DNA from: a virus
Taxonomy: Duplodnaviria > Caudoviricetes
Length of the DNA stretch: 43,488 nt
Direction: 5' to 3' (one strand)
IMG/VR virus record: IMGVR_UViG_3300020045_008791
Coordinates: 1-43,488 of that record
Positions 3,844 through 14,840 of the stretch are shown here, in pieces. Under the pieces are notes generated by a model. The model saw only the letters and a list, made by a program, of their open reading frames with translations, was not told the DNA's origin and searched no databases. The position numbers and the translations under genes are program-made. Position 1 is the stretch's first letter. Each line of letters begins with the position of its first letter.

Positions 3844-5553
3844 ATGGATAAGACATCAGAGCCGGTTATCGGCGCAGAAGCTCGTAAGAAGATCCTTGCC
3901 GGTGTGAATAAGGTTTACAACGTGGTGCGACTAACTCTCGGCCCAGAAGGGCGTAACGCTCTTCTACCAAGGACATACAATCGTGGGCCACGAAACACCA
4001 ATGACGGTGTGACTATCGCCCAGAATGTGCGTCCCAAGGATGAATACGAGCAACTGGTATCCGAGTATTACAATGAGGGATCGAAGAAAACTAACGAATT
4101 GGTTGGTGATGGAACGACAACTACGGCTGTAATTGCCGGCTTTTTGACTAATCAGATACTGACTGAACTGACGGCCAAGGATATTCCGTCAGCTTCACTC
4201 GTTGGATCAAAGACATCGAGAAAGGGTGTTCGTGCTCTCAGGCAGGAAATGAAGGACGCAAAAGACAAAGTAATCGCTGAAATCAAAGCGATTGCCAAGC
4301 CCATTAAGACGTTAGCTGATCTGGAAAAGATAGCGATTGTTTCAATTGGTAAGGAAGATGAGGGTGTAGCAAAAACTGTAGCAAAGCTAGTCTGGGAAGT
4401 TGGTCGGGATGACGCAGGGAATTTTATAGATAACAACATTGACGTTGTTGAAGGATACAAGGGAGAAGTTGAGACTGAGATCACAAAGGGTATGAAGTTT
4501 TCTGCAAAAGTAGCTCACTCAGCTTTCGTAAATAATCCCGGCAGATTTGAAATGGTAGCAGAAGACGTTGCTGTATTCATAACTAACTACAAACTGGATA
4601 ATCCCTATGAAGTTGTTGGAATCTTGGAAAGAGTTAAGGTTGCAAAAATTGCTATATTCTCTCCAGATTTCTCGCCGGTTGTTATCAAATCTCTCATCGA
4701 GACTACTAAGGGCGGGTTATTTTGTTATCCAATAAAATGTCCGGCATTAAGGACAGAAGTTCTAAAGGACTTGGCCGTATACACGGGTGCGACCGTAATA
4801 GACAAGGACACGGGAGCTAAATTAGCCAATGTTCAAGCCACGGATCTAGGCTTTGCTACTCGCATTATCGTCAAGGACACAGAGAACCGAGAGGATGCGA
4901 CCCTTAGAGGTGGTCGAGGTGAATTAAAGAAGGTTGGCGATGTAAATGCCATTACGGAGAGAATCGAAACTTTGAAGTCCCAACTCAAGGAAGCTAGAAA
5001 TGACGTTACCCGCATCACGTTAGAGAAACGTATAGCAAGTCTCTCATCTGCTGTGGGTATTATCCGAGTAGGAGCAACCACTTCAGCCGAGGGTCTATAT
5101 CTAAAACTCAAGATTGAGGATGGTGTTTACGCATGTAAGGCCGCTCTACAAGAAGGTTATGTTGAGGGTGGTGGTAAATGTTTGAAGAAGATTGCCGAGA
5201 AACTTGAGAAAAATATATTAACTGATGCGCTAGTTGCTCCGTACGACCAGATTCAAAAGAACGCCGGCGGACAATTAGAGATCGGAAAAGAAATCATTGA
5301 CCCGGCCAAGGTTGTGAGACTTGAAGTCGAACACGGGGTATCTGTGGCCTCAATGCTTATCACTGTAGAGATTCTATTACCTGAAACTAAGGAAAAAATG
5401 CCGGGCGATGGTTATGCAGATATTGCTAAGGCAATCAGTCGATATTCGTATTACTGGGCTAAACATCAAGGGCTACTCAAAGCCTCAGAGGATGAAGCTG
5501 AGGCGGATAGGGATAAGGAGTTTGAAAGAGTAATGTTAAATGATAAGGGATGA
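3844..5553 (+). CDS. groEL: GroEL-family chaperonin (divergent)
   Basis: TLGPEGRN, TNDGVTIA, GDGTTT, LEKRIASL, KIEDG and IIDPAKVVR motifs; 569 aa; no GGM tail. Confidence 0.95.
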   Translation: MDKTSEPVIGAEARKKILAGVNKVYNVVRLTLGPEGRNALLPRTYNRGPRNTNDGVTIAQNVRPKDEYEQLVSEYYNEGSKKTNELVGDGTTTTAVIAGFLTNQILTELTAKDIPSASLVGSKTSRKGVRALRQEMKDAKDKVIAEIKAIAKPIKTLADLEKIAIVSIGKEDEGVAKTVAKLVWEVGRDDAGNFIDNNIDVVEGYKGEVETEITKGMKFSAKVAHSAFVNNPGRFEMVAEDVAVFITNYKLDNPYEVVGILERVKVAKIAIFSPDFSPVVIKSLIETTKGGLFCYPIKCPALRTEVLKDLAVYTGATVIDKDTGAKLANVQATDLGFATRIIVKDTENREDATLRGGRGELKKVGDVNAITERIETLKSQLKEARNDVTRITLEKRIASLSSAVGIIRVGATTSAEGLYLKLKIEDGVYACKAALQEGYVEGGGKCLKKIAEKLEKNILTDALVAPYDQIQKNAGGQLEIGKEIIDPAKVVRLEVEHGVSVASMLITVEILLPETKEKMPGDGYADIAKAISRYSYYWAKHQGLLKASEDEAEADRDKEFERVMLNDKG

Positions 5554-9956: not shown

Positions 9957-10394
9957 ATGAAAGTCGGTGAATATAGTTTAATCAATTCTGACAAGGTGGA
10001 ACGTGCCTTGAACGGAACGCCGCAAGCAAACGGGGTGGCTATCGGTGGTGTGGGTGCAGGTGCGTATTTCGAGGACTTATGGAAAAGGGATGGCAAGGAG
10101 CTTTCAGAGACAGAAGTCTCAGAACTCAATAGAAGGCTTTTGGCTGAGTACGACAAGTTAGGTGGCTGTATAAAACGTGGTGATGACAAAGTAAAGACTG
10201 GTTCTTTCTATGATTTTAGTGCACGTAAGCCGAGAGTTGAGCCCCAGATAGTATTTACTTACATTGTGAATGGAAAAAACATCGACGTTGCTGATGGTGT
10301 TCAATTGCCGGGTATGGTCGTAGCGGCGAAGGTTATGGCTGAAGAGGCAAAGAAGACTAAGAAGTCCAAGAGGACGAGAGATGTTGATGAATAA
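9957..10394 (+). CDS. Hypothetical head-module protein
   Basis: 145 aa with an A-rich leader, between portal and scaffold. Confidence 0.7.
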   Translation: MKVGEYSLINSDKVERALNGTPQANGVAIGGVGAGAYFEDLWKRDGKELSETEVSELNRRLLAEYDKLGGCIKRGDDKVKTGSFYDFSARKPRVEPQIVFTYIVNGKNIDVADGVQLPGMVVAAKVMAEEAKKTKKSKRTRDVDE

Positions 10395-10734
10395 CGAGGA
10401 GCAGACAATTCTTCAGAAGTACTTGATTGGGTTTCTAGTGGGTGATGTGTTCAATACAGTGAGAGAGGAGGATGTTCTCAAGATACATGCACCTAATGCT
10501 TGGGAGCACAAAGGTAAGGCGTTAACAGAGGGTCAGGTGAAAGCTCTTAGACAAGAAGCCGATATCTTTAGGGAATCAGCACTGTGGCATATCCTAAAGG
10601 ATGAATTGAAGTGGCACGCTTATCAGAATGGCTACATTAAAGCTAAAACTGAGGCTGACATGATTTCGAGTAAGGTGCTTGAGTATCTGATCGGCGTGAT
10701 TGATAACAAGTTACAGAAGATGTCCGTGATATAA
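10381..10734 (+). CDS. Hypothetical head-module protein
   Basis: 117 aa helical protein (ESALWHILK) in the slot usually seen before the scaffold. Confidence 0.7.
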   Translation: MLMNNEEQTILQKYLIGFLVGDVFNTVREEDVLKIHAPNAWEHKGKALTEGQVKALRQEADIFRESALWHILKDELKWHAYQNGYIKAKTEADMISSKVLEYLIGVIDNKLQKMSVI

Positions 10735-10742
10735 GAGTGATG

Positions 10743-10925
10743 TTCATTAAAACTGAAAACGAAGGTGCTCGGCGAGGAGCAACGAGGTCGTTCTGCTAGG
10801 TTATCCATTCTCGCCAATGGATGACCGACTAGAGCGACTTCACCAGAAGTCGTTTTCTCGTACTAGGCGAATCCTAGATGTCCCGAAAGGACTAATTTAT
10901 GCCCACGGAGAGCTGTATCTCCGAT
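10743..10925 (+). ncRNA. Structured RNA leader with predicted kissing loops
   Basis: Multiple stems with G-U pairs on the + strand; loops GGCGAG (10771-10776) and CTCGCC (10810-10815) are complementary. Confidence 0.6.
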
Positions 10926-10931
10926 GTCTAT

Positions 10932-11681
10932 ATGACTCCAGAAGAACAAAAGAAGGCCGAGACTGCTAAAGCTGAAGCCGAAGCCAAAAAAGCAGAGGAA
11001 AAAGCAGATGATTCAGAAAAATCCGATGAAGAGGACGCTGAATCTAAGGACACTGACAAAGCACCCGATTATAAAGCTCTATTGGAGGAGGAGAAACGAA
11101 AGAGGGAAGATGCTGAAAAAGCTCTTGCTGAAAAACGATTCAAATCCGCAGAGCGAAAGCGACAAGAAGAGGAAGGCGAAGAGTCTGAAGAAGAAAGCGA
11201 GGAGGATAAACCCGTAACTCGCAAAGAACTTCAAGATCTCGTCGAGCGAACCCGGTCATCAACCTTCAAGGAACTCCAAGCTGATCGTATTAGCGATATA
11301 GCCAAAGGACTTGCAGATTCAGATGCTGAGGCCGAACTCATTGTTGAAATACACAAGAACCGAATCTTTCCATCTCACCTTTCATTAAAGGAACAGTTGG
11401 AAGAGTCGCACGCAATTGCCAATAGAAAGAAGCTAGTATCGAAGAACAGCGAGCTTAAACGTGCTTTAGCTAGTCGAGAAAACGCTTCTAACGATGCCGC
11501 TGGTACTCATCGTGACGGTATGGAAAGTACAGCTCCAAAGAAGTCAGCACAAGATGTTGAATCTTACAAGCGAGCAGGTTTCATCTACGACTCGAAAACG
11601 AAGGATTACAGGAAGAAGTTGCCAAGTGGCAAGATTCTTGTTAAAGACCCTCGTACTAAAGCGACATACATAGCTAAATAA
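10932..11681 (+). CDS. Putative capsid scaffolding protein
   Basis: Acidic disordered N-terminus plus coiled coils, upstream of the capsid genes; ATG 10932 preferred to 10899, which lies in the structured leader. Confidence 0.75.
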   Translation: MTPEEQKKAETAKAEAEAKKAEEKADDSEKSDEEDAESKDTDKAPDYKALLEEEKRKREDAEKALAEKRFKSAERKRQEEEGEESEEESEEDKPVTRKELQDLVERTRSSTFKELQADRISDIAKGLADSDAEAELIVEIHKNRIFPSHLSLKEQLEESHAIANRKKLVSKNSELKRALASRENASNDAAGTHRDGMESTAPKKSAQDVESYKRAGFIYDSKTKDYRKKLPSGKILVKDPRTKATYIAK

Positions 11682-12396: not shown

Positions 12397-12443
12397 TTGA
12401 ATCCACAAGGAGGTCACACAGGACAACTTTCATCAGATGCGGT
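12397..12443 (+). CDS. Major capsid protein, exon 1
   Basis: TTG AAT CCA...GAT GCG GT| gives MNPQGGHTGQLSSDA(V); ends in the U of the intron P1 wobble. Confidence 0.75.
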
Positions 12444-12667
12444 TAATTTCAGCTAGGCCGCACTCTACAGCAATGTAGATGACTAAAATCTTCTCTAATC
12501 AATGGCGAACACCCAGAAGTGGGCAACGCTCAACAAGCGAAAGCAGTTGCAGAGACTAAGTGAGAAGAATCCTCAGTCGAGGAATATGCAATAGTCCGAC
12601 CTATGGTCATAACAAAAGGAAGCCATAGAGATAAGCAGAAATGACTTATCCGCAGTACATTGAAAAC

Positions 12668-12696
12668 TTGATTAAAACACACCAACAAGGTACAGT
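12668..12696 (+). promoter_or_regulatory. Intron-internal promoter for the HNH gene
   Basis: TTGATT-17 nt-TACAGT, then 6 nt to ATG 12703. Confidence 0.55.
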
Positions 12697-12702
12697 ACAT
12701 TC

Positions 12703-13290
12703 ATGATCACCTGTCCATTTTGCGATAAAGAATTTAAGCGAGTCTATCCCAAATGGACTGAAGAAAAAAAACGTCAACGTCGTTTTCAGCCAGCTTGGTT
12801 AAAAGCCAAGGACATCTTCACTGACTACAATAATGGGTATGCAATTAGGTGGCTTGTGCGGAAATACGGGGCAGATAAACGCACGATAAGGAAAATCCTA
12901 ACTGAGAATGGTGTTAAAAAGTTTAGGGGAAGAAAGGGTATTCAGGCATGGAATAAGGGGAAAAGTAATCCTCATTCTCTGGGTTCCAAAAATGTTAACT
13001 GGAAAGGCGGGGTCACCCCATTAAATATGAAAGTAAGAAGGTGCCCACGCTATAAATTCTGGGTTGGTGAAATTATGAAAAGGGATAACTTTACTTGCAA
13101 ACTTTGCCAGAAAGGAGGTGGGGACTTAGAAGTTGACCACTACCCTGTAATGTTCCGTGATATAATGGTACAAATCTCCTCCTTTGAGGAGGCTCTTGAA
13201 AGTCAAATATTATGGGATACGAATAATGGCCGAACACTGTGTAAGAATTGCCACAACAAAACAAAATCAAGTTTCAATAAATTGAAGTAA
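12703..13290 (+). CDS. Intron-encoded HNH homing endonuclease
   Basis: AWNKG and NVNWKGG DNA-binding-type motifs; RDNFTCKLC...EVDH...NNGRTLCKNCH. Confidence 0.9.
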   Translation: MITCPFCDKEFKRVYPKWTEEKKRQRRFQPAWLKAKDIFTDYNNGYAIRWLVRKYGADKRTIRKILTENGVKKFRGRKGIQAWNKGKSNPHSLGSKNVNWKGGVTPLNMKVRRCPRYKFWVGEIMKRDNFTCKLCQKGGGDLEVDHYPVMFRDIMVQISSFEEALESQILWDTNNGRTLCKNCHNKTKSSFNKLK

Positions 13291-13297
13291 CAAATTG

Positions 13298-14213
13298 CCA
13301 GACCGAAATTGACGGAGTTGCATACGAAAGATACCAGCGCACACAGCAGCCCGGTTATCTTTCAGCAACCGACTCATTCTTCTTCAAACAGTCTAATGAA
13401 CCTCTCCTAGCTTACACGTGGGATGAGGACTCAAATGTTGGTGCATTTGATGAGACAGACGAACAGGAGGAACTTACAAACACCGATACATTCATTGGTA
13501 ACACCAAGACCAAGAGAATGCAGAAATGGACGAAGCAGATCCCAGTTTCTATGGAATGCTTTAGGGCAGACCATGTCGGAAAGAGGCAGAGGATTGGTGA
13601 GCAGATGGGCGACAGAGCACGTCTCACACAGGATAAGAAGGCAATTCTTAATACCTATGGGGATGCGTTCTCTGGATCAATCAACACGACTCCAGACGGT
13701 CAGGCTCTTGCATCTAACTCTCATACCACGCTCAAGAGTGTCACAGTAGACAACCTTGAGACAGCAGCACTTGATTCTGATGGTCTTTGGACCACAGTTC
13801 AGAGTCTTGCCAATCAAAAGGCACAGGACGGTGAGGCTGGATCTTATGTCTTTGAAGGTCTAGGTGTTCCTTTCATTCTCTACAAAACCGCAAAAGAGAC
13901 TCTGGCTTCAGAACTCGTACCGGGATCAGGAGAGAACCAGATCAACATCTACGACACGGATTATGGAACAGTACGAATTGCTGCTTCTATTTTCCTCGGT
14001 TCTACATACAATTCGAACTCGAATGCAAACACGTCATATCACGTTATTTCAGGTAATCACATGGTAAACCGTAAGGTTCACATGGATTTGAGCACAACTC
14101 TTATCTTGCCTGAGTACACCGCGAATGACTCGTATGCTTATCGAGGCCGATTCCTTGAAGCTCACTTCCCAGAGACATTTTCTGGCTATGTAGGCAACAA
14201 CGGAACAGCATAA
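13298..14213 (+). CDS. Major capsid protein, exon 2 (spliced product 320 aa)
   Basis: Open frame from |C CAG ACC GAA (QTEIDG...) into the tracked 13518 ORF; TPDGQALASNSH and LETAALD motifs resemble HK97-fold capsids; position in head module. Confidence 0.85.
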
Positions 14214-14238: not shown

Positions 14239-14754
14239 ATGAACAAAACAACAGTAGTTTGGGTGGGTCTGATTGTGGTAGCACTTATCGCAATCGGCGG
14301 TTACATGTATCCAGAGGCCCAGAACATTCTTGGCGGGGGTACACGTTTCCCGAACGGACTTAGCGCAGATCGTACTGCACCTATAGATGGGCAAGTACGC
14401 GGAACGACTCTTACGATTACTGGAGCATCAACATTTGGTTCAGCTGGAACGGCAGTTACCGCACTTGAGTTCGGTACTTGCTCACCTTCTTTTCCGAGTG
14501 CTGATTTGGCTGCTTCAACAACAGCAACTGGTATTTGTACTGATTCTTCTGTTACAACATCGGATAAGTTTCTTGCAACTCAACGATTTACAGGCGCAAC
14601 GACAGGACTTCCATCATTGGGACTCTTTCCGGTGCTTAATGTGATCGCTACAACGTCCGGACAATACGGAATCGTTGTAACAAACTTTACTGGTGCGGCT
14701 TCAACTTCCATAAACGCGATTTACAGGACTTATTCAGTTCAAGTCACTCGTTAG
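14239..14754 (+). CDS. Head-module protein with N-terminal TM/signal helix
   Basis: MNKTTVVWVGLIVVALIAIGGY, then GTRFPNGL and a Thr-rich beta domain. Confidence 0.7.
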   Translation: MNKTTVVWVGLIVVALIAIGGYMYPEAQNILGGGTRFPNGLSADRTAPIDGQVRGTTLTITGASTFGSAGTAVTALEFGTCSPSFPSADLAASTTATGICTDSSVTTSDKFLATQRFTGATTGLPSLGLFPVLNVIATTSGQYGIVVTNFTGAASTSINAIYRTYSVQVTR

Positions 14755-14803
14755 TCCGTTTCCTTTGCCCGTCACTATCGAGGCGGGCAACGATGAGCGG
14801 ACT
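14755..14803 (+). promoter_or_regulatory. Long hairpin without U-tract (processing or stabilising element)
   Basis: GTCCGTTT..TTGCCCGTC-loop-GGCGGGCAA..GAGCGGAC at the head/tail boundary. Confidence 0.5.
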
Positions 14804-14840
14804 ACAAATTAAAAAAATAATTATAAGTTAGATTAACAAA

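Follow-up and report, generated by a model that had tools for sequence, protein, structure and literature searches.

We describe an RNA element that lies between the portal block and the scaffold/capsid block of a complete 43.5-kb virus record with terminal repeats (the whole stretch of 43,488 nucleotides is called the window here). Comparison with its relatives shows the element to be a conserved RNA whose pairs covary and for which two folds are predicted, each excluding the other; it is best classed as a real, undescribed RNA motif, a variant of the transcription attenuator. Our favoured reading, to which we give a probability of about 45%, is that it attenuates transcription of the scaffold and capsid genes, with a kiss between two hairpin loops that would block an antiterminator helix and thereby favour termination. 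Termination itself, the direction of the effect and its trigger are the parts of this model that we infer. For phages that infect uncultured bacteria with small genomes, little is known about the timing and dosage of head-gene expression. The element likely sets how much transcription reaches these genes, and it does so as a compact, strongly covarying RNA whose kiss appears to be wired to the terminator in the sense opposite to that of known riboswitches.

Two predicted, exclusive folds ahead of the scaffold-like gene

Along the region, a small ORF is followed by the large terminase gene and a portal-sized gene, then by ORF145 and ORF117. Next comes the element, and behind it lie a scaffold-like gene, a gene of 176 aa and the gene for the major capsid protein; ‘portal’ and ‘scaffold’ are names deduced from position and character. 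ORF117 (117 aa; 10381-10734, + strand) matched no Pfam or PHROG family with its window protein, and a protein search returned ORF117 itself as the sole match. The acidic scaffold-like gene (10932-11681, +) is named for its position between portal-like and capsid genes, and its protein gave a weak lead to Phage-scaffold clusters (Atlas). The 3′ part of the major capsid gene (13296-14213, +) is 72% identical to the capsid protein of locus L001, which matches the phrog_371 major head protein (E 1e-5). Four of six matches of the capsid profile to genome contigs carried Patescibacteria-group titles, which is weak host evidence because such contigs may be binned phages.

The predicted fold of positions 10743-10925 is a three-way junction of -66.8 kcal/mol (z -4.41; none of 200 shuffles was as stable), and all parts named below lie on the + strand. 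The closing stem P1 joins GAAAACGA (10755-10762) to TCGTTTTC (10850-10857). The short hairpin P2 (5 bp, 10766-10781) carries the loop GGCGAG (10771-10776), and the long hairpin P3 (10784-10841), built of 12 bp, a 3x3 internal loop in mid-helix and 11 bp, carries the loop CTCGCC (CUCGCC in RNA; 10810-10815). The two loops are exact reverse complements and would be the kissing partners. In the alternative fold, 10831-10841 pairs with 10846-10856 in a terminator-like hairpin of 11 bp, two of them G-U, with the U tract TTTTCTCG at 10853-10860. The tract is weak (5/8 T), and a consensus terminator scan of the window did not flag the hairpin on the + strand. Since its 5′ arm is the 3′ base of P3 and its 3′ arm is the 3′ strand of P1, the alternative hairpin excludes both stems: the 5′ strand of P1 pairs with the terminator 3′ arm plus U tract, and the lower helix of P3, which holds the terminator 5′ arm, is the predicted antiterminator.

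A sequence-only reading of this DNA had proposed P1, P2, P3, the complementary 6-nt loops and the alternative hairpin. On re-reading the letters of the window, all of these proved exact in position. The three small hairpins that it placed between the junction and the ATG are present as well. The third one (10906-10923) precedes the start codon only if the scaffold-like gene starts at ATG 10932 and not at 10899; start 10932 is favoured because M12 is kept in at least 90% of 119 aligned homologues. These hairpins belong to a separate, more widespread motif, which is treated further below. We also noticed a 19-codon open frame (10740-10799, +) that starts 5 nt past the ORF117 stop and spans P1, P2 and lower P3; it was not seen by eye in L004 or L156.

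Loop complementarity across syntenic junctions

Searches with the scaffold and capsid proteins yielded 196 loci, or 197 with the window. The 170 loci with both ORF117 and the scaffold gene were collapsed to 96 distinct junctions, and six of the 27 dropped loci were restored via the scaffold start, giving 102 junctions. A long hairpin was found in 50 of these and none in 52. Eligible for loop comparison were 32 loci whose long hairpin has a loop of at least 5 nt, and in 15 of them the loop of an upstream short hairpin is complementary to the long-hairpin loop over 5-7 bp (thresholds were chosen after examples had been seen). In 2000 draws with permuted or with shuffled loops, both nulls averaged 1.4 such loci and reached 6 at most. 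Two additional kiss loci, L158 and L089, which came through a descriptor and a covariance model in which loop pairing was not encoded, bring the total to 17 of 103 distinct syntenic junctions; 86 lack the element.

The 17 kiss loci hold 11 distinct loop pairs, all of them complementary and one with swapped polarity, and variants of the loop include GGUAAG, GGUGAG, GGCAAG, GGUUAG, GGCUAG, GGGUAU and GGUGGA. When loops from different loci are combined, 24 of 272 non-cognate pairings reach 5 bp. These statistics come from a scripted loop comparison; the loops are out of register in the model alignment. The kiss elements are 41-58% identical to that of the window, and the 13 kiss rows on a quick, midpoint-rooted tree are never sisters (13 changes), so that the kiss loci are largely independent observations. 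The two loops are spaced by 35-46 nt in all but one of 15 kiss loci. P3 has 20-33 bp in all 17, and its length spreads less in kiss loci than elsewhere (SD 8.9 vs 13.3 nt). Loss of loop complementarity among relatives had been named as the outcome that would speak against a kiss; what we found is that complementarity is conserved and that the loops covary.

Promoters vary from junction to junction. A sigma70-like promoter was detected at 15 of 103 junctions, seven of them without a long hairpin, which indicates that the scaffold/capsid block is controlled in several ways. In L089 and L122 such a promoter lies directly upstream of the kiss element, the layout of a leader attenuator. The other 15 of the 17 kiss loci lack a strong promoter-like site, the window among them (its score of 6.1 falls short of 6.6, the 90th percentile of the background; ad hoc weights). 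Relatives thus solve the same junction by kiss and terminator, by a long hairpin alone, by a promoter or by nothing, which provides a natural comparison series.

Loci with P3 only have features of their own. Eleven such leaders (L001, L002, L024, L030, L034, L143, L011, L118, L178, L006 and L146) keep conserved loops (CUCACC/AUCACC, AUCGACC, GGUCGAU) with no adjacent partner hairpin. In two of 12 P3-only loci, the loop of a post-capsid hairpin is complementary to the P3 loop 2.7 kb upstream (shuffle p 0.01): GGUGAG:CUCACC in L028 and GGUGAU:AUCACC in L130, at ~+2650 and ~+2655 from the scaffold start. This pairing is a possible long-range kiss; no such post-capsid partner loop was found in the window. 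Matches to P3 loops in upstream genes mostly fell outside hairpin loops and not at shared places, which led us to reject a distant partner there, and a partner ~540 nt upstream in L001/L002 was considered and dropped. A variant leader in L096 (~245-420) combines a promoter-like site and a strong terminator with a run of 10 unpaired nucleotides that complements the tip of P3.

Covariation of both folds and the link to a terminator

P2 and P3 together show two-sided changes at 26 of 31 pairs, including all five of P2, and 78% of their cells pair compared to 60% after shuffling and 38-51% after sliding; these counts rest on ten sequences with hand-placed structure and are therefore biased upward. 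The terminator hairpin shows two-sided changes at 6 of 9 pairs. RNAalifold on a plain MAFFT alignment recovered the terminator only, missing P3 because P3 is out of register. P1 pairing is locus-specific across the 17 loci (-6.8 vs -4.2 kcal/mol; 0/5000 permutations), and in 13 of 15 kiss loci the full-length RNA is predicted to prefer the junction over the terminator fold. P1 covaries even though its 3′ strand would still be inside the polymerase at the decision point, so selection also acts on the finished three-way junction. Counts of G-U versus A-C pairs did not discriminate between the strands (37 vs 25), and the strand of the element was assigned from the U tract and the gene direction.

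The kiss is tightly linked to a terminator. A terminator-like hairpin followed by a U tract was found at 14 of 15 kiss loci versus 3 of 35 P3-only loci (Fisher p 1e-8, uncorrected for kinship), and by eye L158 and L089 also have a G+C-rich hairpin and U tract. A stricter terminator scan found 15/17 among kiss loci, 2/35 among P3-only loci and 0/51 among junctions without a hairpin. One locus, L124, has a kiss without a U tract, and the alternative hairpin is kept in 19 of 35 P3-only loci, mostly without U tract. The co-occurrence of kiss and terminator and the covariation of both folds support the earlier suggestion of a switch for head genes.

A model of kiss-driven attenuation

We propose that P2 folds first and that the emerging CUCGCC would then be presented by an upper P3 hairpin and kiss the P2 loop. 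The kiss would stretch the 5′ strand of lower P3 as a linker, so that the antiterminator helix could not zip; the free AGAGCGACUUC would pair with GAAGUCGUUUU and the polymerase would stop. When the kiss is missed or blocked, P3 would zip fully and hide the terminator arm, allowing read-through, after which P1 would lock the full-P3 fold.

The assignment of the kiss to the terminating side is based on energies and ruler geometry. Modelled at the point of termination, 14 of 17 loci prefer full P3, the median margin being 2.0 kcal/mol; in 15 of 17, the bare loop duplex (-5 to -11 kcal/mol) is worth more than this margin. By a straight-helix ruler, the kiss is out of reach with full P3 in all 17 loci. 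With the terminator fold it is reachable in 10 of 17 by this crude ruler and fails in seven, badly so in L004. These ruler failures, the weak U tract of the window and the kiss without U tract in L124 are counterpoints to the attenuator model, as are the covariation of P1 and the alternative hairpin kept in many P3-only loci.

The kissing helix consists of Watson-Crick pairs throughout and varies in sequence, which makes a small molecule an unlikely input. More likely, the input is folding speed plus something that occupies P2; this could be a ribosome that sits at the stop codon upstream, a factor encoded by the phage or a further copy of the RNA. P2 lies at most 12 nt from the upstream stop in 9 of 15 loci, where coupling to a ribosome fits; it does not fit in the window, where P2 begins 31 nt past the stop of ORF117. 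Some override would be needed, since the terminator precedes the most highly needed virion genes, and scans of 27, 20 and 19 proteins turned up no member of an antiterminator family.

Other readings of the element

P1 is selected although it cannot form before the decision, and this keeps alive an unlikely reading in which the terminator does no more than define a 3′ end and the released RNA, refolded into the junction closed by P1, pairs through its loops with other copies. Dimers, rings or chains would result, or the RNA would pair in trans with transcripts still being made. This reading agrees with the locus-specific pairing of P1, with the greater full-length stability of the junction fold and with an intramolecular kiss that is out of reach in this fold, and the promoter-like site of L089 and L122 would yield a discrete RNA of ~110 nt. 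Short natural RNAs form assemblies of this kind (bioRxiv 10.64898/2026.07.01.735769), and pRNA loops covary likewise (PMC12670572). The general lack of a strong promoter-like site in the other kiss loci, the window too, however means no defined 5′ end; absence from 86 of 103 junctions speaks against an essential structural role, and burial of the terminator arm in P3 is left unexplained. Less likely than this is an attenuator of opposite sign, in which P3 would bend at its internal loops and a kiss inside the junction would stabilise read-through, as kissing does in guanidine-IV riboswitches. Co-occurrence of kiss and terminator, the narrower P3 length in kiss loci and the mid-helix 3x3 loop of the window would suit this reading. 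Against it, no hinge motif common to the P3 stems can be seen, the internal loops of several stems are no larger than 1x1 or 2x2, the straight-helix gap of 92-154 Å compares with a linker of 6-38 Å, and P3 wins without the kiss in 14 of 17 loci.

The lowest probability among these readings goes to P3 as an RNase III processing or mRNA-stability hairpin. After the cut, the alternative hairpin would cap the new 5′ end of the scaffold/capsid message, and kiss and U tract would merely tune cutting or add leaky termination. RNase III requires about two turns of double helix, a length that the P3 stems of all 17 kiss loci provide, and phage T7 is a precedent for such processing. Long hairpins without a kiss are common (35 of the 50 junctions with a long hairpin), the alternative hairpin is often kept in them, and the window has another long hairpin after the gene that follows the capsid gene (14752-14804). 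Several P3 stems are on the other hand interrupted every 4-8 bp, and the tight link of kiss and U tract as well as P1 covariation would stay unexplained. A role in RNase III processing or stability fits the P3-only class and not the link of kiss and terminator.

Returning to kiss-driven attenuation, we also considered that the leader may count its own copies, through junction loops that could pair only with other molecules. We regard this as improbable, if less so than a processing hairpin and more so than the opposite-sign attenuator. Accumulated terminated RNAs would kiss nascent P2 loops in trans, block the kiss in cis and open the capsid genes; alternatively, they would polymerise into a natural RNA ring. 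If true, copy counting would switch late genes with neither protein nor ligand, by means of a cassette of ~105 nt that passes from one phage lineage to another.

A copy of the element in a second phage lineage

Two of nine matches of an IMG/VR pattern scan were real, and both (L262/L263) represent one more phage with the element (48.5 bits; the pattern partly demanded the loops). It has P1, P3, the terminator and a loop spacing of 40 nt, the spacing having been left free in the pattern. The proteins of this phage have no detectable homology to those of the window. Its element follows a terminase and a portal-sized gene and precedes scaffold-like and capsid genes, which is the same operon boundary. 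Within this second lineage, one of 76 loci has the element. Its patchy distribution is thus that of a cassette bound to a single operon boundary, and may reflect repeated loss or exchange. An HNH gene (L271, 5022-5585) is likewise present in the second-lineage phage, between its scaffold-like and capsid sequences.

Two other IMG/VR pattern scans returned 0 of 44 real matches, and 5 of 14 matches at known loci with 0 of 9 others real. The element model matched none of five MAGs (incomplete genomes, no positive control), and the reads of one DNA sequencing run left the element uncovered. A mobile repeat was rejected as an explanation: the window holds one copy, and 12 of 13 terminator-bearing descriptor matches in 769 kb lie at the scaffold leader.

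Comparison with known RNAs

Rfam 15 gave no match at the gathering threshold in the window or in ten kiss loci; the best sub-threshold match was unrelated (18.5 bits vs 39; E 0.57). In phage lambda, late control runs through the terminator tR′ behind the promoter pR′, ahead of the virion genes, with the antiterminator Q. The arrangement here is alike in having a terminator ahead of virion genes, one that follows a promoter-like site in L089, L122 and L096. Unlike in lambda, the leader itself contains a predicted RNA antiterminator and a kiss, and the phage proteins scanned included no Q-like one.

The pRNA of phi29-like phages is a stand-alone essential RNA, and a pRNA-like multimer had been the other idea of the first reading. 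Unlike pRNA, the window RNA overlaps a terminator inside the head operon and is patchy among relatives; a further difference is that the window phage has an ordinary large terminase gene. A stand-alone promoter is missing in the window and present in two of 17 loci, and instead of occurring in all members the element occurs at 17 of 103 junctions and one of 76 second-lineage loci. The likeness to pRNA (PMC12670572, PMC3753930) lies in a three-way junction closed by the RNA ends, a short and a long arm and complementary, covarying loops, which pair by 3-4 nt in pRNA versus 5-7 in the family of the window element. Given the 86 of 103 junctions without the element, a pRNA-like packaging role is unlikely, and this idea is further weakened by the terminator overlap, the lack of a promoter and the lack of an Rfam match.

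Guanidine-IV riboswitches offer a comparison for the steric logic. In them, the folding of two hairpins, a kiss between loops and an intrinsic terminator are in competition while the RNA is transcribed, and as a helix grows, a linker becomes shorter and the kiss is impeded (PMC11611296). That helix is the terminator, and the kiss favours read-through on ligand binding (PMC11611296). In the window element, it is the terminator arm that would be hidden as the helix grows, the loops differ freely in sequence from locus to locus, and Rfam has no matching family; the steric logic would be the same, with its sign inverted in our favoured model. Only three columns are invariant in ten kiss sequences and none of them lies in a loop, so that no conserved guanidine-IV pocket bases are seen. 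The L5-L13 kiss of cobalamin riboswitches is likewise a regulatory loop-loop helix of 5-7 bp, and a bulge in it gives ligand dependence (PMC10907184). The interloop helix of the window is perfect, which by this analogy argues against a metabolite input (PMC10907184). manA and EGFOA are RNAs of less than 200 nt with modules able to pair between copies (bioRxiv 10.64898/2026.07.01.735769); they are other Rfam families, and the window RNA matches none.

No description of the motif was found in Rfam or in the literature searched. The word ‘kissing’ is absent from the main text of PMC10690425 and PMC5737381, and six contig ids are absent from six supplementary files of PMC10690425; the motif may be among the roughly ten thousand unnamed candidates of that study. 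The 11 loop pairs of the kiss loci could serve as orthogonal parts for RNA design.

A second motif and further features of the genome

The hairpins downstream of the junction form motif B, which is separate from the kissing element. Its first unit (10863-10899, +) reads hairpin-GAUG-hairpin-U/A run; a second, similar unit (hairpin and GAUG; 10906-10934, +) ends at the likely start 10932 and was read by eye, the strict descriptor having missed it. The pattern hairpin-GAYG-hairpin occurs in 50 of 96 junctions compared to 0.005 per 140 nt elsewhere, where it is ~100-fold rarer. Motif B is thus more widespread than the kissing element, likewise has no Rfam match and was not seen by eye in the second-lineage copy. 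An upstream ORF was ruled out as its explanation, as GACG variants occur and the frames differ in length by eye. Scaffold autoregulation is known from phage P22, and our guess is that motif B is a translational operator or initiation signal.

The major capsid gene of the window is split near codon 15 by ~850 nt (~12400-13295) with an HNH endonuclease ORF inside (12703-13290). The insert is probably a self-splicing intron; Rfam did not flag it. In several relatives (L024, L037, L055 and L109) the capsid match also begins near residue 17. The second long hairpin at 14752-14804 is imperfect, and similar hairpins were found in many relatives. A stable branched hairpin with a U-rich tail (2641-2780, - strand; -50.4 kcal/mol) lies in a long intergenic region and is a weak descriptor match. 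Farther upstream of the head genes, the window encodes a Cas4-like exonuclease (575-1543, -) and, ahead of the terminase, a GroEL-like chaperonin (3844-5553).
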